Shown piece after piece: positions 31,785 to 59,200 of a DNA stretch of 64,000 nucleotides (within the stretch, counting starts at the first letter, position 1; every line of letters starts with the position of its first letter). The notes below the pieces were generated by a model. That model saw nothing but the letters and a program-made list of their open reading frames with translations, searched no databases and was not told the DNA's origin. The translations under genes and the position numbers were made by a program. This stretch comes from Minisyncoccota bacterium (GTDB lineage Bacteria > Patescibacteriota > Minisyncoccia > Phycocordibacterales > PALSA-1337): positions 22,394 through 86,393 of the forward strand of contig JBAYFZ010000003.1 in assembly GCA_041666915.1 (NCBI GenBank). Direction: 5' to 3'.

Positions 31785-32633
31785 TTAAACAATATCTGCG
31801 AAATATCTTTCAACTTTCTTGAAAACATAAATTCCTACGAATAAAAGTATTACACAAGCAATGAATGAAATACCCAATAACATCCAGTTGATGGGTGCTG
31901 TACCGAGTAAGGCTGCACGAGCATTTTGGATGACTCCCATCATTGGGTTTAGAGCTAAAATTGTTGAATATTTGCCAGCAATACTAGCGGGGTAAATAAC
32001 TGGCGTTACAAACATAAGAATTTGGATGAAAAAGGGAAGGGCGTATCTAACGTCGCGGTATTTGACGTTGATAGCGGCTAGGAATAGTCCGCCACCAACT
32101 GATGCCATGAAAGTGATAATAAGTAGTAGTGGAACAATGAAAAGACCGGCTAGATGAGGAACGTACCCATAGTAGAACATCAGGCCAATCAATATTACTG
32201 AAGCAATAATAAAATCAACCAGCTTTGTCATAACTGAAGAAATGGGGAGGATGAGTCTTGGAAAATAAACTTTGGTGATGATGGCTTGATTGGTTACTAA
32301 AGTAGTACTTGTTTCGGAAAGAGCACCGGAGAAGAATTGCCAAAATAGAAGTCCGACATAAACGAATATAGGGTAGGGTACTCCGTCAGAAGGGATTTTT
32401 GCTAGTCCACCGAAGAAGACTGAAAAGATAACCATTGTTACGAATGGTTGGAAAATAGCCCAAGCAACACCGATAGCAGTTTGTTTGTATCGGACTTTGA
32501 GATCTCTCCAAGTAAAGAAATAAAGTAATTCACGATACTGCCACAGCTCTTTTAGATCAGAGAAATGGAATAATTTTTTTGGTCTTATGACTGTAATTGA
32601 AGAATTCGTTGTCATGGTTTTAGATTTTACCAT
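31785..32633 (-). CDS. wzm: Polysaccharide ABC exporter permease (ABC-2, Wzm type)
   Basis: 282 aa with 6 TM segments and an N-terminal ...LKELWQYRELLYFFTWRDLKVRYKQT motif. It sits immediately upstream of wzt with a start/stop overlap. Confidence 0.75.
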   Translation of the reverse strand: MVKSKTMTTNSSITVIRPKKLFHFSDLKELWQYRELLYFFTWRDLKVRYKQTAIGVAWAIFQPFVTMVIFSVFFGGLAKIPSDGVPYPIFVYVGLLFWQFFSGALSETSTTLVTNQAIITKVYFPRLILPISSVMTKLVDFIIASVILIGLMFYYGYVPHLAGLFIVPLLLIITFMASVGGGLFLAAINVKYRDVRYALPFFIQILMFVTPVIYPASIAGKYSTILALNPMMGVIQNARAALLGTAPINWMLLGISFIACVILLFVGIYVFKKVERYFADIV

Positions 32634-32875
32634 TTGTTTATCTTATTAACGACTTTCTTTTTTAGTGAAAGATAAGACTTCACAGCTTCTTGTTCTATTT
32701 CGGGGGAGAGGACACGTAGGATTTCTTTGCCAAGGATGCGGTACTGTCCACCAACTTTATTGGCACGGAGCAAACCTTTTTTTAGAAGGCGTTTGACCGT
32801 ACTTTCACTGATCCTCAAAATGTCTTGAGTCTCAGAGGTTGTATATACACTGTTTGGTTTGATTTCTTCTGCCAT
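32627..32875 (-). CDS. Small HTH DNA-binding protein (Xis/HTH_17-type, MerR superfamily)
   Basis: 82 aa. ...TSETQDILRISESTVKRLLKKGLLRANKVGGQYRI fits the HTH_17 pattern. It overlaps the wzm start by 7 bp and is the first gene of the minus-strand operon. Confidence 0.55.
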   Translation of the reverse strand: MAEEIKPNSVYTTSETQDILRISESTVKRLLKKGLLRANKVGGQYRILGKEILRVLSPEIEQEAVKSYLSLKKKVVNKINKW

Positions 32876-32883
32876 AAGGTCAT

Positions 32884-33110
32884 TTTAGCTGAAGTGTCAA
32901 ATGGTGTCAAATAGGGTCAAAGACACATCAGAACATTCCTTTTGAAAGCCGAGAATCTGTCTGAGCGCAGTTTTAGTTTCTTAGTAAAATGCGAATGTCC
33001 TTGGAATTACGAGAGGACGATTAGTCCTCCGTAATTCCTGAGCAGTTTACTTAGAAAGTAAACGGAGCGAGTCTCGCAGGCTTTCAAAAGGAATGTTCTG
33101 ACGTGTCTTT
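32884..33110. promoter_or_regulatory. Three direct GTCAAA-type repeats followed by a 202-bp nested palindromic element bounded by 32-bp inverted repeats (31/32 match); a MITE-like element or a structured leader/operator
   Basis: Direct repeats TGTCAAAT(G/A)G at 32884-32914. Inverted arms are 32909-32940 and 33079-33110. Inside are a perfect hairpin at 33003-33038 (ggaattacgagagga...tcctccgtaattcc) and a second hairpin at 33045-33063. The element lies in the divergent region between the HTH gene and the ligase-like gene. Confidence 0.5.
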
Positions 33111-33139
33111 GGGGGTTCAACATTGAAATCCGTACTGGT

Positions 33140-35401
33140 ATGATGTACGATACCCTTACTTTTACTAATATCAATTTACTCAAAAATATGCCCCTCAAGA
33201 AAATAGTTCATGGTATAACGGTCGCTTCTTTATTCCTTTTGCCGCTTTTTGCTCTATTTCCAATACCTCATACTCCGTTTGAAGTATCTAACCTTTTCTT
33301 TTTCCCATTCATTACCGGTAAAGCTTTCTATTTCAGATTGATGGTTGAGGTCGCTTTCGCAGGATGGCTTATCTTAACTTTTATTGATGCAAAATATAGA
33401 CCAAAATTAACACCACTTACTATTGGTGTAACTTTGTTTACCGTTATCGCTTTTCTTGCGGATATTCTCGGGGTCAATCCTCTTCGCAGTCTTTGGTCAA
33501 ACTTTGAACGTATGGAAGGTTGGATAACAATAGTTCATTTGTGGGCATTGTTCATGGTAACTACAAATGTCTTTGGTTCTGGAGAAGAAGGTAAGAGAAT
33601 GTGGCATCGTTGGTTGAATATGTCTCTTGCTGTTGCTTTGGTCACTGCCTTTTATGGATTGGCTCAATATTTTGGTTGGGCAGAGATTCACCAAGGTAGT
33701 ACACGTTTGGACGCTTCTCTTGGTAACTCAGCATATATGGCAGTTTATATGCTGATCCATGCTTTCATCGCTGCTTATATGTATTTTGTTGCTAAGGCAA
33801 AAAAGATTGTCAATGCTGATTTTTTGAAATGGTTTTATCCTATAATTTCTTTATTGTTTGCTTTCCTTGTATTCCAAACACAGACTCGCGGTACTATTCT
33901 AGGACTCATCGGAGGAATTCTCTTGGCTCTTGGTCTATATGCTTTGCTCGCCAAAAATGAATCAAGTAAATCTCGCGGTATTGCGGTAGGAGTTATAGCT
34001 GTCATCATCTTGATCGGTGTTATCTTCTGGACGAATCGCAATTCTTCTTTTGTTCAAAATAGTCAATTGCTCAATCGTATGGCTAGTATTTCTTGGTCAG
34101 AAGCCAAGGGTCAAGCTCGTAATTACATTTGGCCATTAGCTATAAAAGGTGCAATGGAAAGACCAATTCTCGGTTGGGGACAAGAAAACTTCAACTATAT
34201 ATTCAATGCCAATTACAATCCGGCAATGTACACCCAGGAACAATGGTTTGACCGTGCTCACAGTGTGTTCATAGATTGGTTGGTTGCAGGTGGTTTTGTA
34301 GGTGTTATTGCATATCTTGCATTGTATGTACTATTACTTATGGCAGTCTGGAAATCTTCCATGACCATTGCAGAAAAGAGTGTTCTTACAGGACTTACGG
34401 CTGGATATTTTATCCACAATATCTTCGTCTTTGATAACTTGGCTAGTTACGTTCTATTCTTTACTGTTTTAGGTTTTGCCAATTCACAAACTAGAAGTGA
34501 ACATCGTACATTATTTGGTAAAAATACAGTTAGCAAAGATGCTGTTGAATATGTAGTCGCTCCGATAGTTATAGTTTGTCTGGTTGGTGTATTGTATTTC
34601 TTCCAATATCGTTTGGTACAAGCCAATACACGTCTTATTACTGCTCTGGTTTCTTGTTCAGGAAGCGGTCAGCCAGATGCGACTTTGTATGAGAAAGCTT
34701 TGGATGTAAATGTTTACGGTGCCAACCAAGAGATTCGCGAGCAGATACTTAGTTGTGCTGGTAGAGTTATTCCTTCTCAACAACTTGCAGGTCCTATCCG
34801 ACAAGCTTTCTTTTCTACAGCAATGAATGAGATCCAAGCTCAGATAAAAGCTACTCCTAAAGATACTCGTATTTATACTTTAGGTGGTTCATTCTTGAAT
34901 AGTATAGGACAATTCAATGAAGCTTTACCTCTTCTTGAAAAAGCTCATGAATTATCACCAGCAAAGCAATCAATCTCCTTTGAGTTGGCAACTGATTATT
35001 TGAATCTTGAAAAAGCCGATAAAGCTGTCATCTTACTAAAGCAGGTTTATGAAACCACTCCAGATTTTTATCAAGCAAAATCTTCTTATGCTACAGCCTT
35101 GGTTCTTTCTGGAAAAGAGACAGAGGCTAGAAAGATATTTAGCGATGATTTGGGAATCTTCAACACCGCTCAGATGGCAAAGGCTTTTGTGATGCTCAAA
35201 CAATATTCCAAAGCTATTACAATATATAGAGGTTTGATAAAGGCTAATCCAAAAGATGTAGATCTCCGTGCTCAATTGGCCCAGATACAATATATGGCAG
35301 GTCAGATTTATGAAGCAGTTGCAACTTTGCGTGATATAGAAAAGAGTAATCCAGAATTGAAAGCTCAAATTGACGCTACTATAAAGCAGATACAAAAATA
35401 G
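33140..35401 (+). CDS. O-antigen ligase/polymerase-like membrane protein (Wzy_C-type) with C-terminal TPR repeats
   Basis: An N-terminal domain of about 470 aa has more than 10 TM helices and a large periplasmic loop. The C-terminal 250 aa are TPR-like (YEKALDVN..., AKSSYATALVLSGKETEARKIF...). Confidence 0.6.
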   Translation: MMYDTLTFTNINLLKNMPLKKIVHGITVASLFLLPLFALFPIPHTPFEVSNLFFFPFITGKAFYFRLMVEVAFAGWLILTFIDAKYRPKLTPLTIGVTLFTVIAFLADILGVNPLRSLWSNFERMEGWITIVHLWALFMVTTNVFGSGEEGKRMWHRWLNMSLAVALVTAFYGLAQYFGWAEIHQGSTRLDASLGNSAYMAVYMLIHAFIAAYMYFVAKAKKIVNADFLKWFYPIISLLFAFLVFQTQTRGTILGLIGGILLALGLYALLAKNESSKSRGIAVGVIAVIILIGVIFWTNRNSSFVQNSQLLNRMASISWSEAKGQARNYIWPLAIKGAMERPILGWGQENFNYIFNANYNPAMYTQEQWFDRAHSVFIDWLVAGGFVGVIAYLALYVLLLMAVWKSSMTIAEKSVLTGLTAGYFIHNIFVFDNLASYVLFFTVLGFANSQTRSEHRTLFGKNTVSKDAVEYVVAPIVIVCLVGVLYFFQYRLVQANTRLITALVSCSGSGQPDATLYEKALDVNVYGANQEIREQILSCAGRVIPSQQLAGPIRQAFFSTAMNEIQAQIKATPKDTRIYTLGGSFLNSIGQFNEALPLLEKAHELSPAKQSISFELATDYLNLEKADKAVILLKQVYETTPDFYQAKSSYATALVLSGKETEARKIFSDDLGIFNTAQMAKAFVMLKQYSKAITIYRGLIKANPKDVDLRAQLAQIQYMAGQIYEAVATLRDIEKSNPELKAQIDATIKQIQK

Positions 35402-36822: not shown

Positions 36823-36826
36823 TTTT

Positions 36827-37211
36827 GTGTCATTCCCGCGAAGGCGGGAATCCAGGATATTACCAAAACATAACGAATAATATGAATAAGGTATATTATG
36901 TTTATATATTAACAAATGATAAGAATGGTACTTTATATATAGGTGTTACTAATGATCTTAGAAGAAGATTGCATGAACACAAGAATAACCTAGTAAAAGG
37001 ATTTACAGAGAAATATAGTATTCACAAATTAGTTTGGTACGAGTGTACTAATAGTATTGATTCTGCAATACAAAGAGAGAAACAGCTTAAAAAGTGGAAT
37101 CGTAGATGGAAGATTAGATTGATTGAAGAAACTAATCCAATTTGGAAAGATTTATCCAGTAATGATCTATAGTGGTAATATCCTGGATTCCCGCCTTCGC
37201 GGGAATGACAC
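36827..37211. mobile_element. Small GIY-YIG element bounded by perfect 38-bp terminal inverted repeats
   Basis: Left: gtgtcattcccgcgaaggcgggaatccaggatattacc (36827-36864). Right: ggtaatatcctggattcccgccttcgcgggaatgacac (37174-37211). These are exact reverse complements, and each arm is itself a hairpin (ttcccgc/gcgggaa). The element is inserted between the murB stop and secA. Confidence 0.65.
36882..37172 (+). CDS. GIY-YIG nuclease family protein
   Basis: MNKVYYVYILTNDKNGTLYIGVTNDLRRRLHEHKNN...KKWNRRWK has the GIY-YIG core (YVYIL...YIGVT...R...E...N). The track ORF starting at 36810 reads through the left repeat; the internal ATG at 36882 is the more likely start. Confidence 0.75.
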   Translation: MNKVYYVYILTNDKNGTLYIGVTNDLRRRLHEHKNNLVKGFTEKYSIHKLVWYECTNSIDSAIQREKQLKKWNRRWKIRLIEETNPIWKDLSSNDL

Positions 37212-37276
37212 AAGAGGCAGTAATGTAACAAAAAGAAAGCACACAAGGCTCGCCTCACCTCAATAAATGTGATAAA

Positions 37277-39988
37277 GTGGCTCTACGCATGTCATTTTTG
37301 GATAAATTAAGAGGTGGTTCTCATACGAAGGCCTTGAAAGGGTTTCAGCCTATCGTAAAAGAGATAAATCAGCTTGAAGCAAAGATTCAGGCTCTTTCTG
37401 ATGAAGAATTGAAAAGAAAGACAGTTGAATTTAAAAAAAGACTTGAAATAGTTGATCCTAAATCTGGCGAAACCTTGAAATTTACCGACCCTGCAGAAGA
37501 AAAGAAAATTTTGAATGCGAAATTAAATGAGATTTTGCCCGAAGCTTTTGCAGTGATTCGTGAAGCATCTCGCCGTACTTTGGGTCAGAGACATTTTGAT
37601 GTTCAACTTCTGGGAGGTATGGTTTTGAATTCTGGAGGTATTGCAGAGATGCGAACTGGTGAAGGTAAGACTTTGGTGGCCACATTACCAGCGTATTTGA
37701 ATGCTCTGACTGGTAAAGGTGTACATATTGTTACAGTCAACGATTATCTCTCTAGACGTGATGCCGTTTGGATGGGTCAGATTTATTCTTTCTTGGGTCT
37801 TTCTGTAGGTGTTATAAACCACGAAGCATCTTTTTTGTATGATGCTACTGCTGTCACACCTAGTGGTGATATCCTGGATTCCCGCCGAAGTTTATCCTCG
37901 AAGGGGACGGTAAATGACAACAAGAGCCAGGAGGTCACACCTCCAGATTCGCTTCCAGATTCACTAGATAAAGAACGCGATTCACTCGGTGCTTTCAAAG
38001 TTGTTCATGAATTTCTACGACCAGTTTCTAGGCACGAAGCCTACATGGCTGACATTACTTATGGTACTAATAATGAATTCGGTTTTGATTATTTGCGTGA
38101 CAATCTAGAATATTCTAGAGATAGGTTGCGTCAGAGAACTTTCAATTACGCTATTGTTGATGAGATTGACTCTATTCTTATAGATGAAGCTAGGACACCT
38201 CTCATTATCTCTGCACCAACTCGTGATGCCGAAAGTACTTACAAACAATTTGCCCAGCTTGTTACTTCATTCAAAAAAGATGAGGACTACACGGTTGAGG
38301 AGAAACATCGTTCAATCTCTCTTACTCCAGCTGGTATTACCAAAGCTGAAAAGGCTCTGGGTATAGAAAATATTTATACAGAAAAGGGTATCAAGTCAGT
38401 CCATCATTTGGAAACTGCTATCAAGGCCGTAGCTTTGTATAACAATAACAAAGAGTATGTGGTCAAAGATAACCAGATCTTGATCGTTGATGAATTTACA
38501 GGACGTATTCAACCAGGAAGACGTTGGTCTGATGGTTTGCATCAGGCTATAGAAGCCAAAGAAGGTGTTTCTATTCAACAAGAGTCTAGGACTTATGCAT
38601 CTATTACATTCCAGAACTTTTTCCGTATGTATCCGAAGTTGTCGGGTATGACAGGTACAGCCGTCACTTCATCTGAAGAATTTTTCAAAGTTTATGGTTT
38701 GGAAGTTACAACGGTGCCTACGAACGTTCCTGCTGTTCGTAAAGATGAGAATGATCAGATCTTCCGCACGGAGATCGGTAAATACAAAGCTATTTCTCGC
38801 AAAGTAAAAGAGCTTCATGCCAAGGGTCAACCTGTTCTTATTGGTACAGTCTCTATTGAAAAAAATGAAGTTTTGTCACAGTTTTTGAAAGCGGAGGGTG
38901 TTCCTCATGAAATTTTGAATGCCAAGAATCATGAACGTGAAGGAGAGATTATCGCTCAGGCTGGCAAAAAGGGTGCTGTGACTATTGCCACAAACATGGC
39001 TGGTCGCGGAGTTGATATCAAACTTGGTGGTAATCCAAATACTCCAGAATCTTATGCAGAGATAAAACAAAACGGTGGTCTTTTTGTCCTTGGTACAGAG
39101 AGACATGAAGCACGTCGCATTGATAATCAACTTCGAGGCCGTTCGGGTCGTCAGGGTGATCCGGGTGAGACGCAATTCTTCGTTTCTCTTGAAGATACTC
39201 TCATGCGTGTCTTTGCTTCGGATATGTTGAAGTCAATGATGGGTAAGCTCGGCATGCCAGAAGATGAGGCTATTGAACATAAGATCATTTCTAGGTCTTT
39301 GGAATCTGCTCAAGAAAAGATTGAGGGATTCAATTTTGATTCTAGAAAACATGTTTTGGAATTTGATGACATCATAAATCACCAGAGAACTGCTATCTAT
39401 GGTAGACGTCGCAAATTGCTTATGGGTACAGTTGATGATGTTGAAGCGGAGTTAGGTCAGATTATTGGGGGAGAGAACTCTGATGTTACGGGAATAATTC
39501 AAAAGAAAATTGCAGAATTTGGTCGCGAACCTTTCTTGATGGCTGTTCGTATAATTTTATTACAGACGATTGATATGTATTGGGTGGAACACCTAGAGGT
39601 AATGGATTACACGCGTTCAAGTGTAAATCTACGCGCTTACGGTCAACGTGATCCTCTGGTTGAATACAAGAAGGAAGGTCTCAGACTATTCAAAGAAATG
39701 CAGGGCGCTATGAGGGAGCAAGTTATTAAAATCATTCCTCATGTAGTCCCAGTCAATGATGGTAATCCTATTGTCAGCAGTAATTCAAGCAATTCAAATG
39801 GCGCTTCAAAACCTGTTGGTATTCAAGCTGATCTGAAGGAGGTTCATGAAAATGCTCAGATTATTGGTGCAGGTGATGGCTCAAGTAGTTCAAATTCTAT
39901 TAAAAAAGAACCTGAAGTAGGTCGCAACGATCCTTGTCCTTGCGGAAGTGGTAAGAAATACAAGAAATGTCATGGGGCGGGGAAGTAA
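37277..39988 (+). CDS. secA: Preprotein translocase ATPase SecA
   Basis: [59 protein letters not shown], and the C-terminal zinc finger [14 protein letters not shown]. It has an in-frame insertion of about 55 aa after LGLSVGVI. Confidence 0.9.
37861..37886. repeat. 26-nt copy (25/26) of the outer end of the GIY-YIG element's right inverted repeat plus its preceding 'tagtggt', embedded in-frame in secA
   Basis: tagtggtgatatcctggattcccgcc at 37861-37886 versus tagtggtaatatcctggattcccgcc at 37171-37196. Confidence 0.6.
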
Positions 39989-40866: not shown

Positions 40867-41943
40867 ATGATTTCAAGAGTCTCCGCATACTTCTTTTTTG
40901 TCTTATTACTCTGTGCTGTTGTAGCGTCAGTCTTTATTTTCTTGCCATTTTTGACACCGATCATTTTGGGTATAGCTGCTTCGGTTATTGCTTACCCAGT
41001 CTATCGTTGGTTCAGTAAACTTTTTGGAGTTGGTAAAGTTGGTGCTGGAGCAGCTAGGACAAATTTGGCTGCTTTTCTTACCGTCCTTATTCTTGTTGTC
41101 GTTGTCGTTGTACCAGTATTCTTTTTGATCAGTAGAATGTACGTTGAAGTCCAATCTCTTTACACAGCTTTAACAGATGAATCAGAACGCTCGGTTATTA
41201 TCAATAGTCTAAATTCATTGTCCCAGTCATTATCAAATAGACTTTTCAATGTTTTCCCAGCTTATTCTTTTGATTCGCTGAACATTACAGAGTATATGAA
41301 AGGCTTTTTGATCTGGATATTTGGCAATCTGGATAAGATTTTCACTGGTGTAGCGACGGTTGCAATCTATTTGTTCGTCTTCTTATTATCAATGTTCTAT
41401 TTCCTTAGAGATGGAGCAATGATCAAGAGAAAATTTGTCTCATGGAGTCCCTTGCTTGATAATTATGATGAGTATATTACCATAACTTTGAAGAAAGCCA
41501 TTCTGTCGGTTTTCGGAGGTACTGTCGTCGTTGCTTTGATTCAAGGAATACTGACTGGATTTGGCTTCTGGATTTTCGGTGTGCCGGCTCCAGCGGTTTG
41601 GGGTGCCGTGGCATCTATCGCAGCCTTTATTCCTGGAATAGGTACAAGTCTGGTTATTGTCCCTGGAATATTGTACTTGGTATTAACTGGTAATTATCCT
41701 TATGCGGTAGGGTTAACTATTTGGGGAACAGTCGCGGTAGGCCTTATTGATAATATTCTTGGTCCTCATTTGATCAATAAAGGAGTACACATTCATCCAT
41801 TCCTTATTCTTATTTCAGTCTTGGGTGGATTGTCAGTTTTTGGACCAGTCGGATTTGTTCTAGGACCTCTCATACTTTCATTACTCTTTGCATTACTAGA
41901 GATATATAGAACATCATTTACTAACATCAAGGATGGAGAGTAG
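40867..41943 (+). CDS. AI-2E family transporter (PerM/UPF0118 membrane protein)
   Basis: 358 aa, about 8 TM segments, the characteristic length and topology. C-terminal ...GPLILSLLFALLE. Confidence 0.7.
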   Translation: MISRVSAYFFFVLLLCAVVASVFIFLPFLTPIILGIAASVIAYPVYRWFSKLFGVGKVGAGAARTNLAAFLTVLILVVVVVVPVFFLISRMYVEVQSLYTALTDESERSVIINSLNSLSQSLSNRLFNVFPAYSFDSLNITEYMKGFLIWIFGNLDKIFTGVATVAIYLFVFLLSMFYFLRDGAMIKRKFVSWSPLLDNYDEYITITLKKAILSVFGGTVVVALIQGILTGFGFWIFGVPAPAVWGAVASIAAFIPGIGTSLVIVPGILYLVLTGNYPYAVGLTIWGTVAVGLIDNILGPHLINKGVHIHPFLILISVLGGLSVFGPVGFVLGPLILSLLFALLEIYRTSFTNIKDGE

Positions 41944-41995
41944 AGCTAAGAGTTAAGAGGTAAGAGCTAAGATTAATCACAAATTACATCGGCTT

Positions 41996-42043
41996 CTTTA
42001 CCTCTTACCTCTTACCTCTTACCTCTTACCTCTTACCTCTACC
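41996..42043. repeat. Heptanucleotide microsatellite (CCTCTTA)x6 immediately upstream of the obg start
   Basis: cctcttacctcttacctcttacctcttacctcttacctcta. The purine-rich complement (gttaagaggtaagag) lies at 41951-41967, so a stem-loop is possible. Confidence 0.8.
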
Positions 42044-42046
42044 ATC

Positions 42047-43036
42047 ATGGCTCTCATTGACGAAATACAATTTCATGCAAAAGCAGGCAACGGCGGTAAC
42101 GGCGTTGTTCGTTGGCGTCATGAGAAGAATAAAGAATTTGCTGGCGCAGGAGGTGGTAACGGTGGACCTGGTGGGGATGTCTACGTACGGACTGTTCGCG
42201 ATATAAATATCTTAGCTAGACATAAAACTACAAAATTATTCCAAGCTAGAAATGGTGACGATGGACAAAATTTTAATATGCAAGGTAAGGCTGGAGATGA
42301 TTGTTATATAGATTTACCGATCGGTTCAGTGATTGTAAATCTGCAGACTGGACGTACAATTGAGCTATTCAATGAAGGGGAAGAACAGAAGATTCTACAC
42401 GGTGGTCGTGGCGGTCTTGGTAATGAGTACTTCAAGGCTTCTACAAATATTAGACCTGAGCAATCAACTGACGGTGTCTATGGTGAAGAGGCTGACTTTA
42501 CGGTTGAATTGAACCTCATCGCTGACGCGGGGCTTATTGGTCTTCCTAATGCAGGTAAATCTAGTCTGCTGAACGCACTCACGGAGGCACGCGCGAAGGT
42601 TGGTAGTTATCAATTTACAACTCTGGATCCTAACCTAGGAGCTTTACCAGGAGGTTATATTCTCGCTGATTTGCCAGGACTTATAGAAGGTGCGGCTGAA
42701 GGTAAAGGTCTCGGTCATAAGTTCTTGAAGCATGTAAAGAGAACAAAAATGTTGCTCCATCTTGTTTCTTTGGAGAATGAAAATGTTATAGAAGTTTATC
42801 AAGGTATTAGAAAAGAATTGGAGAGATTTGGTGAGGGTTTGGATCAAAAAGAAGAAATAATAATTCTTACGAAGACGGATCTTGTAGGTCCAGAAAAGAT
42901 AGAAGAAGCGAGAAAGAGTCTTTCCGGAGGTGTAACCTCCGGAAATAAGACGCCGACTATTCTCACTGTTAGTATTTTAGATGATGGATCTATTAAAGAT
43001 TTGTCGGATAAATTGACTAAGAAGTTGGCGGAGTAG
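42047..43036 (+). CDS. obg: GTPase Obg/CgtA
   Basis: N-terminal glycine-rich Obg fold (GGNGGPGGDVYV). G1 GLPNAGKSSLLNAL, G3 DLPGLIEGA, G4 TKTD. Confidence 0.9.
   Translation: MALIDEIQFHAKAGNGGNGVVRWRHEKNKEFAGAGGGNGGPGGDVYVRTVRDINILARHKTTKLFQARNGDDGQNFNMQGKAGDDCYIDLPIGSVIVNLQTGRTIELFNEGEEQKILHGGRGGLGNEYFKASTNIRPEQSTDGVYGEEADFTVELNLIADAGLIGLPNAGKSSLLNALTEARAKVGSYQFTTLDPNLGALPGGYILADLPGLIEGAAEGKGLGHKFLKHVKRTKMLLHLVSLENENVIEVYQGIRKELERFGEGLDQKEEIIILTKTDLVGPEKIEEARKSLSGGVTSGNKTPTILTVSILDDGSIKDLSDKLTKKLAE
42922..42944. repeat. REP copy inside the obg coding sequence (encodes SGGVTSGN)
   Basis: ttccggaggtgtaacctccggaa, a perfect 10-bp-arm palindrome. Confidence 0.8.
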
Positions 43037-43628
43037 GGAAGTTTCTTCCGGAGGTGTAACCTCCGGAAAACAGTATTGGTGTTTGTTTACGAATCTCACC
43101 TAAATAATCTTTGAAGCTAGAGTACTCATAATTTTTAGAATAGGCCATTGCTTCCATGGCATGTTCCTTCTGAGCTTCTTTTGACATTTCTGGTTCCTTG
43201 ATCCCGTAAGGATTTAGATGGACATAATTGATTAGCTTATCAAGATAATCTTTTTCGTACACACCTTTTTCTTTGAACGATCCTTGCCAGATAGTTCCAG
43301 AATGATCGTATTTTTTGTTGTAATAACCAGAATAGCCAGTGCAGAATTTATGCATGAATTTAGTAATGTTTTCTGGAGGTGAAGCCTCCGGAAGTTTTAA
43401 GACGATATGGAAATGATTAGGCATTAAACAATAAGCGACAATATCAACAAGCGTACCTTTACGTTCAATTGAAAATATATCTTTTTCTCCGAAACCTTTG
43501 AGTTCAAAAGATTCGGTATTATTAGCTATATAGAGTAGTTTCAACATACGCCAATAGTCGCTGGCGTCATTAAAAATGACTGCTTTATGAGCTCCTCGGT
43601 TGTAGATATGATAGTAAATTTCTTTCAT
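43017..43628 (-). CDS. REP-associated tyrosine transposase (RAYT; IS200/IS605-like Y1 HuH transposase)
   Basis: HuH motif MPNHFHIVLKLPE. Catalytic Tyr region DYLDKLINYVHLNPYG and a downstream YSSF, as in E. coli RAYT (YIYINPVKHG...WPWSSF). It is flanked on both sides by REP palindromes. Confidence 0.75.
   Translation of the reverse strand: MKEIYYHIYNRGAHKAVIFNDASDYWRMLKLLYIANNTESFELKGFGEKDIFSIERKGTLVDIVAYCLMPNHFHIVLKLPEASPPENITKFMHKFCTGYSGYYNKKYDHSGTIWQGSFKEKGVYEKDYLDKLINYVHLNPYGIKEPEMSKEAQKEHAMEAMAYSKNYEYSSFKDYLGEIRKQTPILFSGGYTSGRNFPTPPTS
43046..43068. repeat. REP copy (terminator-like hairpin between convergent obg and RAYT)
   Basis: ttccggaggtgtaacctccggaa, 9 nt after the obg stop. Confidence 0.8.
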
Positions 43629-48261: not shown

Positions 48262-49311
48262 ATGAAAAAAATCACGATTATAAACAAATTGAATACTGTC
48301 AATCTGAATAAGGTGCTAGCGATCCTTGCAATATTTGTAGTCGTAGTCGGTGTCTCCAATATGGTGTTGGCAAAAGTAGAAACATCCACCACGACAAGTC
48401 CTGTTACAGAAAAAGCAGTAGTCTCTTTTGAAACTTTGCCAGAAAATACAGTATTCAATGATTTTGTTGTTGGTCCAGGAAAAGTCCAGATAGATATTGC
48501 TCCTGGAGAATCAAAAACTTTTGAACTTACTATTGCGAACAGATTAGGTACAGAGAAAACTTTTTCAATCGTAGAAGAAGATTTCGTCGGCTCAAATGAT
48601 CCAGACAAAACTGTTGTCTTGTTGGGTAATGACCGTGGCCCATATTCGCTCAAGGATTATTTGAAGATAGGTACAAGTTCAATAGACATTCCTCATGCTG
48701 TAAAGTCTCGCGTCTTGATAACTGTATCTGTTCCTAAGAATGCTCAGCCAGGTGGTCTATATGGAAGTGTTGTCATCGGTACCGTGAGTAAGGCTGGTGA
48801 CAATTCTAGTTCAACCGGAGTCAATACAACTAATCCAATAATCACTCGTATAGGTACTTTGGTTTTTGTGAGAGTTGCTGGTGCAGTCAAAGAAAGTGGT
48901 GAGCTTACAGGTTTTATATTAGCTGGCAATCACAAGTTTATTTCTGGAGGAGAGCCTGTAGTCTTTGATCTTTTGTACAAGAATTCAGGAAATATTCACC
49001 TCAATCCAAGTGGAACAATAACTATAAACAATCTGCTTGGTTCAAATGTTGGAAATATAAAAGTTGAACCATGGTTTGCTATGCCAAATTCACTTCGCTT
49101 TCGTGAGGTTGAATGGAAAGCACCTTTTCTCTTTGGAAGATACACAGCTCATGCGGTCATAGAGAGAGGTTACGGTGACCTCAAAGATGAGATGAGTGTC
49201 ACATTCTGGATCGTGCCGTGGAAGATGATGTTGATGGTGATAGCGGGTCTGGTGGTTTTTATAGGATTAGTGAGATGGATATTCAAGAAGTTCAAGATAA
49301 CGAGAAAGTAG
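48262..49311 (+). CDS. Cell-surface protein with N-terminal signal peptide, two beta-sandwich-like regions and a C-terminal TM anchor plus basic tail (DUF916/DUF3324-like architecture)
   Basis: Signal AILAIFVVVVGVSNMVLA. APGESKTFELTIANR looks like a CARDB/DUF916-like strand. C-terminal WKMMLMVIAGLVVFIGLVRWIFKKFKITRK. The track ORF at 48184 overlaps the upstream gene; the ATG at 48262 follows its stop. Confidence 0.4.
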   Translation: MKKITIINKLNTVNLNKVLAILAIFVVVVGVSNMVLAKVETSTTTSPVTEKAVVSFETLPENTVFNDFVVGPGKVQIDIAPGESKTFELTIANRLGTEKTFSIVEEDFVGSNDPDKTVVLLGNDRGPYSLKDYLKIGTSSIDIPHAVKSRVLITVSVPKNAQPGGLYGSVVIGTVSKAGDNSSSTGVNTTNPIITRIGTLVFVRVAGAVKESGELTGFILAGNHKFISGGEPVVFDLLYKNSGNIHLNPSGTITINNLLGSNVGNIKVEPWFAMPNSLRFREVEWKAPFLFGRYTAHAVIERGYGDLKDEMSVTFWIVPWKMMLMVIAGLVVFIGLVRWIFKKFKITRK

Positions 49312-49362
49312 AAGGAAGAGGTAAGAGTTAAGAGGTAGGAGGTAAGAGTTAAGAAAGAAGCA

Positions 49363-50178: not shown

Positions 50179-50234
50179 GGGTAAGGGATTAGAGGATAGA
50201 GAATTAGGGATTAGAAAAAGGGGGCAAAGAAGCA

Positions 50235-53200
50235 ATGAATAAAAATTTTATTAAAAACTTAGGAAAAAATATCATCAAGGTTGCACCTCGATGTTTTGTT
50301 ATCTTTACTTTAATTATTTCTTTCATTGTTTCTCCTTTGTCAGTTTTTGCCGTTCAGTCTACATTTACAACTTCTCTAACTACTACTGGAGTTGCTACAA
50401 CACCACCGGCAATACCTTCCAATCTTTTGGCTACCGCAGTCTCTGATACACAGATTGATCTTTCTTGGACAGCTTCGGTTCCGACATTCTACACAGTTAC
50501 TGGTTATAGGATTTTCCGTGATTCTGTATTTTTGGCCACAACTAGTTCAGTGGTTTATTCCGATACAGGTTTGACTCCAGAGACAGCTTATTCATATACA
50601 GTAGAAGCTTTTGATTCAATTATTCAATTGTCTGGACAGTCTGCCACTTCTACAGCTACAACTACAGCAACACCAGTTGTTCCTCCTGTAACTCCTCCAG
50701 TAACACCACCTTCTTCTGGTGGAGGAAGTTCGGGATCTTCAGTGATCAATATCACTGATATTAAGGTCGTCGCTGGAACAAATAATGCAAATATTTCATT
50801 TAAGACCAATGTATCAGCTCAGACGAAAGTCCAGTGGGGATTCTCAAATGATTTTGAAATCGGTTCCCTTCAAAATATTTTTTATGGAAAAGAACATTCT
50901 CAAATGATAAATGGTCTTGTTGAAGGTTTAACATATTTTGTCAGGATTACAGCTACCAATAGTCAAGGTATATCTACATATAGAGATATTTCTTTCAAGA
51001 CTGATCTTGCTGTAGTAGAACTTGGTCCTTTGCCAAACCCATCAAATTTCTTGGCACAAGCTACAGACAAAAATATCAATCTTACTTGGGACAATCCTAT
51101 AGATGAGAGATTCAATAATGTCAGAATAGTTCGTACAGAAGGATTTTTCCCAATAGATCAATTTGACGGTACTCCTATATATGAGGGTGATGGTCAATCT
51201 TTTGTAGATAAGAGTGCAAAAATCGGTACTACGTATTACTATGCTATTTTTGCAAAGGGTATAGATGGAGAATATTCTTCAGGTGCTTTGGCTCAAGCTC
51301 GCATCGCTCCAGCTGGAGAGATAGTAGTCTCGCCAACTTCAACAGATCCATTTATAAATATTCCAGAGTCAACAAATGTGGATCCGATGATCAAAAAGAT
51401 TACTTTGTCTGATTTTGAATTTATTCAAGAAGGGAAAAATCTTTCAGTTATCGGTAGTACGGTTGCTATAAAAGGTGGCGAAAATCTAACTATTCGTCTT
51501 GCATACAACAAAGTTCCTGAAATTTTGAAGACAGTTGCTTTCACCTTGCAAGATCCATCAGATAAAACAAAAGTCTTCCCATTTTTGTTACGTATCAATG
51601 CTGACAAGACTTACTATGAAGCGACTATTGGTGCTTTGGGTAAATCTGGTCGTTATGGAATGTCAGTAGTTATTTTGGATTATGAAAATAAAGGTTTGAA
51701 ACGTTTGAATGGAACTCTTGCTGCGCTTGCTTTCAATGCAATGCCTTTTGATTTCGGTAATAATTTTGATTTCTTGGGCATATTGTTGTTGCTCTTGGTA
51801 ATCATCCTTGTTATTTTGGCTATCGCATTGCTTCGTAAGTGGATCAATTATTCTCCAGAACATCAGACTGTAGACAAACCAAAAACTTCTGGAGTTACTA
51901 TTTCCAGAGATGTTTTCAATGCTATTTCAAAGATTTCAATATTTGTCTTGGTTGTTACGGCTTCATTCGGAATTCAACAAGCATTTGCTACTACTTTCAA
52001 TCCAGAGATAAATTATCAAGGTAAATTGACCGATAGTGTTGGTTCAAATGTTGCCAATGGTTCATATAGTATTCGTTTCAAACTTTATACGACCTTGTCT
52101 GGAGGTTCACCTATTTGGACTGAGACATGGTGTAACACTTCAACTTGTGATGGTTTGGGTACAGGTGCGGATAGTAGAATAACTTTGACTAGTGGATTAT
52201 TTAGCACCATGCTTGGAAGTACGACTGCTTTAGATGGCATTGATTTCAATCAGCCTCTATATCTCGGTGTTGAGATCGGAGGTTCTGGAGCAACGGCTTC
52301 ATGGGATGGGGAAATGTCACCTCGTAAGATTCTCGGAGCTGTCCCTTCCGCATTTTATTCCGCAACTTCTACGGTGGCTCTTTCTGCAAATTCTGCTGAC
52401 ACCTTATCTGGATTGAATTCTTCACAATTCCTTCGCTCTGATATACAAAATGCTACTTCATCATCTTCAACTTTCTTCAGTGTCTTACAATCTGGTGCTG
52501 GTAAGATTGCAGAATTTTTTGGGAGCGCAGCACAAAGTGTCTTTTCAATTTTATCAAATGGTAATGTCGGAGTCGGAACAACTACTCCATCATCTAGGTT
52601 TAATGTTTATGGTGACGTATCTTTCCAAACTCCATCAAATTCAGCCACAGCTTTTCAGATACTAAACTCGGCCACCAGTTCGGTTTTCTCTGTAGCTACT
52701 ACAGGCTTTGGTACTACTACTTTAGCTGGTCTAACTATTTCTGGTTCAGCTACTTCTACCTCTAACGTAGGTTGGAATATCTCCACGGGATGTTTTGCAG
52801 TCAACGGTGTCTGTTTGAGTGGTGCAGATGGTACGGCCAGTTCCACTCTATTATCTGATACCAACACATGGACAGGTTTGAATGTCTTTGGTTATGCAAG
52901 TACCACTCAGATCAGTTCAACAGGAAATGCTTATCTTGCTACGACTGGTGGGAATGTTGGTATCGGCACCACTTCGCCATTCGCAAAATTTGCAATCAAT
53001 CCAATTGCTGGTGATGGGGCGTCATTCGTCATTGGTTCTTCTACTAGAACAGATTTTATAGTTACAAATGAAGGAATGATTGGGGTTGGAAGCACGAGCC
53101 CTTCTGCAATTTTCAGTATCTTAGGACGAAACGGCAAGACACAAGGTACGGCGGAAACTAGGATTGCACCAACAGCTCTCTATGTTCAAGGAGGAACCGG

Positions 53201-56200
53201 TGGTGGAGGATCTTCGATCCCTGGGGGTAAAGGAGCGGATATTATCCTTATCGCTGGTAATGGAGCAAGTTCTGCTTTAGGAGATGGTAACGGAGGTAGT
53301 TTAACATTTACGGCCGGTAATGGTGGTGCTACTGATGGGAGTGGTGTTGGTGGAAATGTAACAATAAATCCAGGTCTAACTGGAGGTGGAGGTAATGGTA
53401 AAATTGTCTTAGCTGATTTGCGAGGTAATGTTGGAGTTGGTACCACTTCACCATTCAGTAAACTTTCAGTTTCTACTCCTGCTCAACAAAGCGGATCATT
53501 ACCACTCTTTACAGTTGCTTCTACAACGAGTGCCTCGCTACTTACGGTTCTTGGGAATGGCAATGTGGGGATTGGTACGGCGGTGCCTACAAGTGTTTTA
53601 GATGTTAATGGAAATATAAATGCTACAACCATGATAGCCGGTACTCATCTACTTGTTCAGAATACAGGAATATATTATGACTCGGTTTCCAATGGAGCGT
53701 ATTCTTTTGCAAATTCTGGTGTTGATCTTGCTCTCAAAACAGCCTCTGTCGGCACAGTTATGACGATTAAAGATGCCGGCCTCGTAGGCATCGGCACCTC
53801 TACCCCATATTCCAAACTCTCCGTCTGGGGTTCTTCAACAGGAACAAACAGAATGTTTGAATTAACCAACAGTGCTTCAACAACACTAATGAGTATGTTG
53901 GAAAATGGTACAGGTTATTTCTTGGGTAATATCGGAATTGGCACCACCACTCCAGGTACTATTCTTTCTCTTGGAAATACCGGTGATAGCACCATCAATC
54001 TTTCAGTTACAGCCACTTCAACCTTTGGTACAGGAATAAATCTACGAACAGGTTGCTTCGCTGTAAACGGAACTTGTGTCGGTGGTGCAGATGGTACTTC
54101 AAGTTCTACTCTATTATCAGACACTAACACTTGGACAGGTTTGAATGTCTTTGGGTACGCAAGTACCACGCAGATATCTTCAACAGGTTCCGCCTATTTC
54201 GCAACAACTGGTGGGAATGTTGGAGTTGGTACAACTTCACCTTTCAGTAAACTTTCAGTTTCTACTTCTGCACAACAGAGTGGAACATTACCACTCTTTA
54301 CAGTTGCTTCTACAACGAGTGCTTCATTATTTACAGTTTTGGGAAATGGGAATGTGGGGATTGGGACTTCTACTGTTTCAGAAAAACTTTTTGTGGAAGG
54401 CAACATTGCTCCTTCAATGACTAACCTATATACCGCTGGTAGCTACACTCTAAATTCCGCTGTTGCTTCCGTAGCTAATATTACAGCTTCAGGAATCGCT
54501 AATTCAGATCTACTTGGTGTTAGTTCCGCTTCTGCTGGAGATGTGAATGGTGATGGTATTAACGATGTTATTATCGGTGCAACTGCTGCTGATGGTGCAG
54601 GTACCGATCGTGGTCAAGCTTACATCTTCTTTGGTTCAACCACTCCTAGGACAACATTTGCTCCTGCTTCTGCCGACGTTATCCTTTCTGGTTCAGAAGA
54701 TTCTGGTAGTTTTGGTACTAGTGTCGCCTCTGCTGGAGATGTAAACGGTGATGGATATGGCGATGTGATAGTCGGAGCTACTAATGTTGCTGGCGGAGGT
54801 TCATATCGTGGTCAAACATATATCTTTTATGGAGGCCCAAATTTCACAGGTGCAATAATTGCTTCTTCTGCAAATGTAATTATTTCCGGAGCGGCTGATT
54901 ATGATAGTAATGGTCAAGTTGTAGCTTCTGCAGGAGATGTAAACGGTGATGGATATGGCGATGTGATCATGACTGCATTGTCTGCTGATGATGGAGGTTT
55001 TGATCGTGGTCAAGCCTATATCTTTTATGGTAAGCCAAACCTTGCAAGTACATATACTACAGCAAATGCTGATGTTATTATTTCAGGAAATACCGATGGT
55101 GTTCAGATGGGTAATAGCGTAGCTTCTGTTGGAGATGTGAACGGTGATGGATATGGCGATGTGATCATTGGTGCACAATCTGCAGATGTTGGAGGTAATA
55201 ATCGCGGTCAAGCCTATATCTTTTATGGTAAGCCAAACCTTGCAAGTGCTTATTCAGCTTCTTCTGCGAATGTTATTGTCACTGGAATGGTAGATATGGG
55301 CTTTATGGGTATCAGTTCTGCTTCTGCTGGAGATGTGAACGGTGATGGATATTCTGACTTTATCATTGGGGCAAGTAGTGCAGCTGGTGGAGGTACTTCT
55401 CGCGGTCAAGCCTATGTCTTCTACGGTAAATCAAATTTAGCAAGTACATATTCTGCATCTTCCGCTAATGTAACTATTTCCGGAATCGCCAATAGTGATG
55501 CTCTTGGTTACAGTGTTGCCTCCGCTGGAGATGTGAATGGTGACGGATATGGAGATATTATAGTTGGAGCAGTTGGTGCCGCTGGTGGAGGTACATCTCG
55601 CGGTCAAGCATATATTTTCTACGGTAAGTCTGATCTTTCAAGTACTTATACAGCTTCATCTGCAGACGTTGCTTTTTCAGGAATTGCCACTAGTGATGCT
55701 TTTGGTTCCAGTGTTACTTCTGCTGGAGATATAAATAATGATGGGTACTCTGATGTTATGGTTGGAGCATATGGTGCCGCTGGCGGAGGTACATCTCGCG
55801 GTCAAACATATATCTTTACCCCAACCGGCAATCGTTTCAAATCTATTTATGCACAAAGTGGTAGCTTTACAAAGGGAATACAACTAGGTGGTGGAATGTC
55901 AACGTTGAATGCTTACGGTCTTTCAAGCCTAAGTCAATTTTCATTAAACACGGCAGATTGGTCAATCAGTAAATCAGGAACTTCTTCCATGCAGAGTTTG
56001 ATAGTTTCTGGAAATGTTGGTATCGGTACAACTTCGCCATTCTCAACTCTTTCTGTTTCTACTCCTGTACAGCAGAGTGGATTGTTATCGCTCTTCACGG
56101 TTGCTTCTACTACGGGCGCTTCTCTATTTTCTGTCTTAGGCAATGGAAATATCGGCATCGGCACGACCACTCCGGGCACACTTTTATCTCTTGGAAACAC

Positions 56201-59200
56201 CGGCAACAGTACCATTAATATTTCGGCTACTGCCACTTCAACCTTTGGTACGGGAATAGATTTAAGAACAGGTTGTTTCGCCATTAACGGCGTCTGTTTG
56301 AGCGGTGCAGACGGTACAGCAAGTTCTACACTTTTGTCTGATACTAATACTTGGACAGGTTTGAATGTCTTTGGTTACGCAAGTACCACGCAGATCAGTT
56401 CAACAGGAAATGCTTACTTTGCAACGACTGGAGGAAAGGTAGGAGTTGGAACAACTTCGCCATTCTCAACCCTTTCTGTTTCTACTCCTGCACAACAGAG
56501 CGGGTCATTACCACTTCTTACAGTAGCTTCTACGACTGGTGCGACGCTATTAACTGTTTTGGGAAATGGGAATGTGGGGATTGGAACAATGAATCCAGCG
56601 TATCCATTAGATGTTAATGGAAGTGTGAACGCAGCCTCTTATAGAACAAGTAATGTGATTTCTCTTATATTAGCAAATTCTGCTATAAATATAGGAGATA
56701 CTTATGGAAGTACTTATCCTCTTGTAGTTAATGCTGGTGGTTCAGAAAGGATGAGAGTCTCGACTGGTGGCAACGTCGGCATCGGCACCACCTCTCCATA
56801 TTCCAAACTCTCCGTCTGGGGTGCTTCAACAGGAACAAACAGAATGTTTGAATTAACCAACAGTGCTTCAACAACACTCATGAGTATGTTGGAAAATGGC
56901 ACAGGCTATTTCTTGGGTAATATTGGAATTGGAACAACTTCACCATACGCGAAACTTTCAGTGGTTGGTCCGGTAGTGGCTGAATATTTCTATGCAACCT
57001 CCACAACAGCAACTTCAACATTTGCTGGTGGGCTTGATGTAGGAAATGGTGGACTTGTTTATGAGGCTTCTACAGGTATCACTTCAGCTTCTTCATTCCA
57101 AATGGGTAACTTAAGTTTTGATCTCAATGCAGGTGCTGTATCTTGGATAGATCTTCCAATAGATAGTAGTGCCCCAGCAAATACACCACAGAGTTACACT
57201 GCCAACTTGAACGGTTTGCCAATGCTCACTATCGGAGGTCTTTCTGATGGTGCTGGGAATATTATAAATGCTGGTATCGGAATCGGTACAACTACCTCAT
57301 ATTCCAAACTCTCCGTCTGGGGTTCTTCAACAGGAACAAACAGAATGTTTGAATTAACCAACAGTGCTTCAACAACACTCATGAGTATGTTGGAAAATGG
57401 CACAGGATATTTCTTGGGTAATATTGGAATTGGAACAACCACCCCAGGTACACTCCTTTCTCTTGGAAATACCGGCAACAGTACCATTAATATTTCAGCT
57501 ACTGCCACTTCAACATTTGGTACAGGAATAAATCTAAGAACAGGTTGCTTCGCCGTCAACGGAATTTGTGTCGGTGGTGCAGATGGTACAGCAAGTTCTA
57601 CTCTACTATCAGACACCAACACATGGACAGGTTTGAATGTCTTTGGGTATGCCTCTTCAACACAATTCACAACAACGGCTGATACATATCTTGCGACATT
57701 GGGAGGCAATGTTGGCATTGGTACGACAAGTCCTGTCAGTAAGTTTTCAGTTGATGGGACTTCTAGCTTTAGTGGCTACACTATCATTGGTGGAACATCA
57801 CTTATAGATAATTCAGTTCCTCTTAATGTCATAGCTGATGGTTATTTTGGTACAGCAGGTAAGATAGCAAACTTTATTTCCAATCAAGATTATGGACATG
57901 TGGGTATATTCAAAGATGATAATTCTCGCGGATTGTTCCTCGGTTACGGTACTGGTAATTTGCTAGCAGGTAATGATAATGATGCTTTTATACAGATTGG
58001 AGCCGCATCAAGTAGTCGTGGTTACCTCCATTTGGTTGATGGTGTAGGTGCTGGTTCTGATGGTCAATTCGGTCTAATGAGTCCTTATGTTCTCATTGGA
58101 GCTTCTACTGCAAATGGAAGTGGCTCAGTCTTACAAGTTGAAGGCTTGTCTACTCTTGTTGGTAATGTTGGTGTTGGAACGACTTCACCTTTGGCAAGAT
58201 TGGATGTTGCCGGAGTCTTGGGTTCTCAAGCAGATTTATTCAATGTTTCTTCAACGACAGCAACAGATATAGTCTCAAGTCTATTTAAAGTTTCTGCAAA
58301 TGGTAATGTTACTATCGGTTATTTGAATGGTTCTCTCCAAGCTGTCAACGGAGTAGTTTCTGCAACTTCAACACTTTCAATTGCTTATGGAGGTACAGGT
58401 ACATCTACATCTCCAACATATGGAAAATTACTTATGGGTGATGGTACTGGAAAATATGACTTAGTTGCAACTTCAACATTGGGAATTTTGGGTGCTAGTG
58501 CTATTGCATTGGGTACACCTGGTCAGATACCTTATTACTCTGCAAATTTGCAAGCAGTTTCTGCAACTTCTTCTATATTTATAAATCAGACAAATAGTTT
58601 TATTGGTATCGGTACAACTACTCCTACCTCAGCTTTGTCAGTCTTCAACGCTTCCGCTCCTCAATTCCAGCTCGCATATAACACGAGTAATTACATGAAT
58701 GTCGGGGTTTCTTCTACTGGTGGAGTTACAATGGCAGTCAATGGTTCTCTCGGAGGCTTTGCTATCACAAATCCTCAACCGACCGTTGTTGGTAGTGGTA
58801 CAGGTACAAATGCTCCTCTAGGTTTCTCTGTAGCCGGTGGTATCGGAGGAAATTCAAATGATACAAATATTGGTGTTGGTGGTATCGGTGGCGGTTTGCA
58901 ACTTACAGCTGGTGTTGGAGGTTCCGCAGGACTTTCTACTTTCTCAGAGACAGGTGGTGCTGGAGGTGCAGTATCTATGCTTGCTGGTGCTGGAGGTGCA
59001 ACGGCTTCTCCTAGTATTGATTTTATGTCTAGAGTTGCAGGTAACGGAGGTCTCATGACTTTGGCTGGTGGTGCTGGAGGTAATGCTTCAAATGGTGGTC
59101 TAGCAAGTTCTAATACTGCTGGTAATGGTGGAGCTTTCACTTTGAAAGGTGGTGCTGGAGGTAATGCTAGTGGTGCTACAACCAATAATGGTGGTGCTGG

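Follow-up and report, generated by a model that had tools for sequence, protein, structure and literature searches.

A phased TTGACAC repeat array, candidate operator of a BldC-like protein, and an adjoining orphan palindrome in a divergent control region of a Patescibacterium

The window, i.e., the whole 64,000-nt stretch of a Minisyncoccota bacterium contig that was analyzed, contains a divergent control region between a small regulator gene and an O-antigen-ligase-like gene. The regulator gene (32627..32875, minus strand) encodes an 82-aa protein with a BldC-like winged helix-turn-helix (Pfam HTH_17, E = 7.9e-12) and heads a minus-strand operon, in which it is followed by genes for Wzm (ABC2_membrane), Wzt (ABC_tran) and an FkbM methyltransferase. 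On the other side, the ligase-like gene (33188..35401, plus strand) encodes a Wzy_C + TPR protein of 737 aa (Pfam Wzy_C, E = 9.7e-19). Its start was moved from 33140 to 33188 because the ATGATG frame at 33140 contains a stop codon in a related locus (L004) and the aligned loci share the AAATATG start context; in L001, which corresponds to the window, the called gene likewise has 737 aa from 33188. The intergenic gap consequently measures 312 bp (32876-33187), replacing the 264 bp of an earlier note on this DNA, which rested on the start at 33140. Two features occupy the gap, a short array of tandem repeats in front of the HTH gene and a long imperfect palindrome, and these are unrelated to each other.

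Each gene has its own predicted promoter. The HTH promoter, on the minus strand, was found by a promoter scan as TTGACA-17-TAAAAT, with 11 of 12 consensus matches. A distance of 6 nt separates the end of its -10 box TAAAAT (32882..32887) from the ATG at 32875, so that the HTH mRNA is predicted to be leaderless, starting at or next to the ATG. The promoter of the ligase-like gene, TTGAAA-17-TACGAT (33123..33151, plus strand), is supported by the scan and by conservation, its TTGAAA and a GTAC(G/T)ATA block being invariant in the window and in three related loci (L004, L094 and L095). The palindrome occupies the interval between the -35 boxes of these divergent promoters; both core promoters lie outside it and fire away from it, and no sigma-70-like promoter was detected by the scan within it.

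In front of the HTH gene, three tandem repeats follow one another with a spacing of 10 bp: AGTGTCAAA (32893-32901), GGTGTCAAA (32903-32911) and AGGGTCAAA (32913-32921), the last being a degenerate third repeat. Read on the minus strand, they become TTGACAC (proximal, 32900-32894), TTGACAC (middle, 32910-32904) and TTGACCC (distal, 32920-32914). According to the promoter scan and to an alignment with close relatives (alignment A3), in which this promoter layout is also found, the first six bases of the middle repeat (32905-32910) form the -35 box. The distal repeat shares its first 3 nt with the end of the palindrome. It is nevertheless ancestral, as the nearest relative (L094) has its counterpart CTGACCCC but no palindrome. 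The proximal repeat lies within the promoter spacer, only 7 nt from the -10 box, and is too near to it to act as a -35 box. Yet it is invariant in alignment A3, and this conservation would imply a DNA-binding factor other than sigma. The hexamer GTCAAA by itself is not enriched in the 64-kb window (57 sites against 54.7 expected), and the tandem form TTGACACNNNTTGACAC occurs in the window at this one site only.

The array is conserved far beyond this genome. Homologous loci were gathered via the HTH protein and 79 distinct upstream regions, from Patescibacteria, were compared. At least two phased TTGACAC-like repeats were present in 72 of them, two repeats being found in 42 regions, three in 29 and four in one, with a spacing of exactly 10 bp in all 103 cases (103/103). 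In the regions compared, the -10 box begins 11-14 nt past the start of the last repeat; in 40 distinct loci it ends 5-11 nt short of the start codon, most often at 6 nt. When 375 kb were scanned on both strands, 106 tandem matches fell upstream of the HTH gene and 4 were scored elsewhere; these 4 were likewise located upstream of the HTH gene and on the same strand. The array accompanies the HTH gene irrespective of whether the downstream gene codes for Wzm/Wzt or for a fused ABC exporter. From these comparisons, the array is best read as a putative promoter/operator that is conserved phylum-wide and specific to the promoter of the BldC-like regulator. The repeats had been taken before for three iteron-like copies of GTCAAA; the three copies are there, but they are a -35 box and its flanking copies on the minus strand and not iterons. 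Iterons of a plasmid or phage replicon were rejected on the unit length (10 bp, not 17-22 bp), the overlap with a chromosomal promoter, the lack of a rep gene, a GC skew without inflection and the maintenance of the array upstream of the HTH gene in 72/79 loci.

The genes behind the regulator are of a recurrent type. Wzm/Wzt follow the HTH gene directly or nearly directly in at least 15 loci. The alternative downstream gene, 12 nt after the HTH gene in many lineages, encodes a 594-aa fused ABC exporter (ABC_membrane + ABC_tran), with glycosyltransferase or capsule-synthesis genes as neighbours; it was checked with Pfam in L014 and L072, whose weak Wzt-like match at about +1.1 kb recurs in about 25 other loci. 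The predicted regulator thus consistently heads exporter genes of the glycan type.

The HTH protein has 1546 homologues, of which the best 120 (74-91% identity) are nearly all from Patescibacteria, and 34 positions are invariant among 37 aligned homologues. Its AlphaFold2 model (pLDDT 86.7) found its best fold matches in the PDB among the BldC-DNA complexes 6AMA and 6AMK, with a TM of 0.78-0.87 (normalised on BldC), an rmsd of 1.1-1.5 Å over 50-51 residues and 26-29% identity over about 50 residues. RacA, NmlR, Xis of phage Pukovnik and RdfS were ranked next. A sequence search of the PDB with the protein or its profile returned nothing significant, and the fold search alone was informative. 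A sub-threshold Pfam match of residues 11-36 to sigma-70 region 4 (E = 0.0037) was also observed; it is curious in that the presumed site of the protein, TTGACA(C), is the -35 consensus bound by sigma-70 region 4.

The likeness to BldC of Streptomyces extends from the fold to the DNA sites. BldC, a MerR-like winged-HTH protein (6AMA, 6AMK), binds direct repeats of variable number as head-to-tail oligomers (PMC5859096). The window protein is likewise a small stand-alone MerR-like winged HTH, devoid of any dimerisation or effector domain, and its TTGACAC repeats are also direct, variable in number (2-4 here) and about one helical turn apart. It differs from BldC by an extra C-terminal helix (residues 58-80) and by the lack of a sequence-level match in the PDB. 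Besides, the BldC sites are AT-rich, AATTNNNN(C) at 9 bp, whereas the window repeats are TTGACAC at 10 bp, and, unlike the BldC sites, the window array overlaps the predicted leaderless promoter of its own gene. The same winged-HTH fold is shared by Xis of phage Pukovnik (4J2N) and RdfS (8DGL), two proteins of the excisionase type that assemble into filaments on direct repeats, and the JGI annotation of the window protein is indeed "excisionase family". In contrast to excisionases, the HTH gene has a fixed chromosomal context, at the head of glycan-export operons throughout the phylum, where neither an integrase nor an att context was noticed.

Because the model best matches BldC, a head-to-tail oligomer on direct repeats, the best reading of the array is that of a candidate autoregulatory operator of the BldC-like protein. 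The 82-aa protein would bind the TTGACAC repeats head to tail, with one protomer per helical turn, and its sites would be the proximal repeat in the spacer, the middle repeat that doubles as the -35 box and the distal repeat upstream. Once assembled on the array, it would cover the -35 box and the spacer, and may thereby set its own level and the expression of the downstream glycan ABC-exporter operon. An operator array for the adjacent HTH protein was one of the possibilities raised in the earlier note, and it is the one favored by the phylum-wide occurrence of the repeats, only before the HTH gene, and by the BldC-like model of the protein. However, the repeat unit is identical with the -35 consensus, and contacts with sigma, rather than with the HTH protein, could explain some of its conservation.

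In other Patescibacteria, long hairpins (56-180 nt) unrelated to the palindrome of the window were observed between the TTGACAC promoter and the HTH start codon. They are located at 2264-2410 in L093 (147 nt), at 2311-2490 in L058 (180 nt), at 276-415 in L081 (140 nt) and at 2433-2488 in L063 and L066 (56 nt); a 125-nt hairpin is also found in L092 (542-666), where the array is absent. The HTH genes bearing such hairpins have leaders of 90-180 nt rather than being leaderless, and no obvious Shine-Dalgarno sequence was seen in any of them. In addition, L015 contains a perfect 21-nt inverted repeat at about 2308-2421 (-193 to -80 from the HTH start), one arm of which falls within the initial codons of the divergent ligase gene; a hairpin controlling the translation of that gene is possible.

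The second feature of the gap is an imperfect palindrome of 194 bp (32918..33111). Its outer arms of 33 nt (32918..32950 and 33079..33111) are complementary at 32 of 33 positions, and the single mismatch is an A:C when the plus strand is folded but a G:U pair in the minus strand. Further inside, two inner arms of 21 nt (32972..32992 and 33042..33062) pair at 18 of 21 positions (86%), and the center is an apical hairpin (33003..33038), whose 15-bp stem has a single A bulged out and is capped by a GATTA loop. Compared with its own reverse complement, the palindrome shows 73% identity, with indels. It folds stably in both orientations, with z = -9.2 for the plus strand and -10.5 for the minus strand, a stability equalled by 0 of 200 shuffles for either strand. 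The nested palindrome and the repeats first noticed in the earlier note are real and far beyond chance, with some corrections to the geometry of the palindrome: the size is 194 bp instead of 202 bp; the long near-perfect arms are real, but the left one had been placed 9-10 nt off (32909-32940), and their complementarity of 31/32 becomes 32/33; and the apical hairpin is where it was reported, with a 15-bp stem carrying a bulge and not a perfect stem of 14 bp. The fold comprises 75-77 Watson-Crick pairs and one G:U on either strand, hence without any strand-specific RNA signature. The palindrome contains only short ORFs interrupted by stops, and no transposase gene. An assembly foldback was rejected, given that the palindrome is imperfect (73%, with indels) and that the same sequence was recovered in two independently assembled samples.

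Searches for a second copy returned only the palindrome itself. With blastn and nhmmer, nothing but the self match was obtained in the 64-kb window or in about 90 related loci (about 440 kb). An exact-pattern scan of the arms and of the apical hairpin in 185,579 GTDB representative genomes gave one chance match to a single arm, in a Chitinophaga MAG, and exact-pattern scans of metagenome contigs and, three times, of viral contigs gave no copy. Phage and plasmid collections, searched in a distant mode, contained no match either, nor did 5.8 billion proteins compared with the concatenated six-frame translation. Rfam 15, including 6S, SRP and riboswitch families, was run on the whole window and gave nothing at the gathering threshold, tRNA and rRNA included; up to E = 10, a run on the control region showed only two chance-level matches (12-14 bits), and no family matched the palindrome.

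The comparison of loci indicates that the palindrome was inserted, as had been envisaged from the start, since every relative examined is devoid of it. It is absent from L004, L010, L013, L094 and L095 and from 80 further metagenome loci. In the nearest relative, L094, the ligase is 72% identical and the HTH protein 88% identical to those of the window, and the two promoters are separated by TTTGACCACCACTCCTAACATACCCCTGACCCC. As the nearest ligase homologue found is only 72% identical, no congeneric "empty site" is available. The two -35 boxes are 212 bp apart with the palindrome; they would be 18 nt apart if it were deleted, against 39-86 nt in the relatives. Hence, the insertion was not clean, and the ancestral spacer was probably partly lost or replaced when it occurred. 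The palindrome would have landed in the sole stretch that is not transcribed, between the divergent -35 boxes, leaving both core promoters intact. Its one certain effect is that these boxes, tens of bp apart before, are now separated by 212 bp, with the addition of cruciform-prone DNA. The earlier note had named simple terminator hairpins as its fallback, should there be neither further copies nor covariation, or should close relatives lack the region with no effect on gene orientation; this fallback does not hold either. The genes diverge from the region, and the terminator scan detected no T-run after the stem on either strand and no terminator-like site. An intrinsic terminator was rejected on these grounds, both neighbouring genes beginning, not ending, at the palindrome.

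On present evidence, the palindrome is an orphan. Most probably it represents a palindromic insertion that is neutral or selfish, of the MITE-like or foldback type, without a dedicated function, "neutral" being the default reading. The other hairpins and palindromic elements seen here and in the relatives make a selfish or accidental insertion of a hairpin more plausible a priori. Considered jointly, an array acting as promoter/operator of the HTH gene and a palindrome that is a single-copy, lineage-specific insertion, probably without a dedicated function, form a reading that we hold to be somewhat on the probable side. The alternatives to a functionless insertion were ranked with a MITE first, then a cruciform, then an RNA.

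A genuine MITE would be a transposon that is non-autonomous, bounded by terminal inverted repeats of 33 bp and present in several copies elsewhere in the genome. The palindrome has the corresponding structure, being small, non-coding and free of a transposase gene, with long terminal inverted repeats (33 nt, 32/33), and it shares with MITEs and with ERIC/Correia-type elements a size of 100-200 bp, an intergenic location and a fold into one long hairpin. It is clearly inserted relative to all relatives, other mobile palindromic elements are present in the genome, and one JGI contig breaks within the palindrome. The flanks show ACCC on both sides, a possible 4-bp duplication, but offset by an extra C between ACCC and the repeat on one side, and its status is ambiguous because the TGACCC of the distal repeat is ancestral (present in L094). 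Such families consist by definition of numerous scattered copies, whereas the palindrome was found once: none of the searches, whether of the window, of the related loci (about 440 kb) or of the GTDB, metagenome, viral, phage and plasmid collections, yielded a second copy, no protein resembled the translation, and an IS element whose ends match was not observed. The MITE proposed in the earlier note is therefore upheld as an insertion and not as a MITE, for want of a further copy and of a clear target-site duplication, and we regard a genuine MITE as a possible but rather unlikely explanation. An invertible promoter switch, i.e., an inverton driving phase variation of surface-glycan genes, would be suggested by 33-bp inverted repeats around a segment between surface-polysaccharide genes. 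The interior of that segment is itself palindromic, however, so its inversion would change little; it contains no promoter, and both assemblies that reach the interior (window/L001 and L002) have it in the same orientation, which makes such a switch barely credible.

Other readings give the palindrome a role as DNA or as RNA. Under the negative supercoiling that arises between the two divergent promoters it might extrude a cruciform, or it might be bound by a protein, and so insulate or silence the promoters, perhaps modulated by a filament of the HTH protein. Its position exactly between the two divergent -35 boxes, its strand-symmetric Watson-Crick pairing around a 5-nt center, and ends that carry the GACAC core of the operator, with terminal base pairs that merge with the distal repeat, are consistent with a cruciform. 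By contrast, the arm identity of 73% and the internal loops lower the propensity for extrusion, and the relatives share the promoters and the regulator but not the palindrome, so the system does not need it; we consider a DNA-level function improbable. A comparable arrangement is the HlyU-attenuated cruciform of Vibrio exsBA (PMC10325908), also an intergenic inverted repeat adjoining the sites of a winged-HTH regulator, although that cruciform is conserved and functionally proven, whereas the palindrome is lineage-specific and its extrusion hypothetical. By analogy, the palindrome might be a supercoil-sensitive insulator or silencer of two surface-glycan promoters, with its extrusion set by the adjacent BldC-like filament; this more specific proposal has in our view little chance of being right but, if true, it would make the palindrome a Patescibacterial analogue of the HlyU-cruciform switch. 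Alternatively, the palindrome could be transcribed, either as a small RNA or as the hairpin leader of the HTH operon from a second promoter (TTGATA-16-TATCGT, 33174..33147, minus strand). The fold is very stable on both strands, the sole arm mismatch is a G:U on the minus strand, the weak minus-strand promoter lies upstream (9/12 matches), and in L093, L058, L081 and L063 the HTH gene has an unrelated long hairpin in its 5' leader. However, the -35 box of this weak promoter is not kept in L004, L094 and L095, where the conserved bases fit the plus-strand ligase promoter. Moreover, there is one G:U pair per strand, no terminator follows the palindrome, Rfam gave no match (6S and SRP included), and the palindrome has no homologues and hence no covariation. 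An RNA function is in our opinion quite doubtful. The idea that the palindrome is a leader RNA or an attenuator of the ligase gene was not borne out, since the ligase promoter (33123-33151), kept in four lineages, lies downstream of the palindrome. As predicted from these promoters, the palindrome is outside both transcripts.

Other repeated elements were observed in the window. A Y1_Tnp (IS200-like) transposase gene (43017-43628, minus strand) has the hairpin TTCCGGAGGTGTAACCTCCGGAA on both sides; this hairpin occurs in 7 copies in the window, against 0 expected (35600, 42924, 43048, 43373, 43635, 43744 and 46227), one of them inside the 3' end of the Obg ORF. Together, the gene and its hairpins look like a REP/RAYT system in a Patescibacterium. 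REPINs (PMC3116915, PMC3337134) are, like the palindrome, hairpin-forming and non-autonomous, and the Y1 transposase with its REP-like hairpins is 10 kb away from it; unlike them, the palindrome lacks the local REP motif, has twice the usual REPIN size and is single-copy. A REPIN of the local RAYT was accordingly rejected, the REP motif CCGGAGGNNNNNCCTCCGG having 7 sites in the window and 0 within 32918-33111. Between murB and secA, a gene for a 96-aa GIY-YIG nuclease (36882-37172) lies between perfect 41-bp inverted repeats (36825-37213) with the hairpin ATTCCCGCGAAGGCGGGAAT, a partial third copy of the repeat being located at 37864-37886; this may be a mobile cassette. Hairpins made of heptamer repeats (AAGAGGT... 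/ ...ACCTCTT) are found in intergenic positions at two gene ends (41940-42054 and 49308-49355); they make up another repeated hairpin family and may be terminators. Finally, the region from about 50200 to 64000, for which no ORF is listed, is highly repetitive, with 198-nt tandem units, 25 copies of a 40-nt motif and a higher G+C of 0.42-0.44; it is probably a single giant gene for a repetitive surface protein that runs off the end of the window.

Transcription control in Patescibacteria (Candidate Phyla Radiation) is almost unstudied, and our literature search found no paper on the HTH protein, its repeats, leaderless promoters or MITEs in this phylum. As the palindrome demonstrates, the surroundings of the HTH promoter tolerate long hairpin-forming insertions, and these recur there. 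The main value of the locus lies not in the palindrome but in the extremely conserved 82-aa BldC-like protein and the equally conserved, 10-bp-phased TTGACAC array. As a phylum-wide array for a putative BldC-like regulator, the repeats are of moderate interest for CPR biology. Judging from comparative sequence data and the structural model, the protein and the array would constitute a simple and testable candidate regulator-operator pair in a phylum with very few known regulators.
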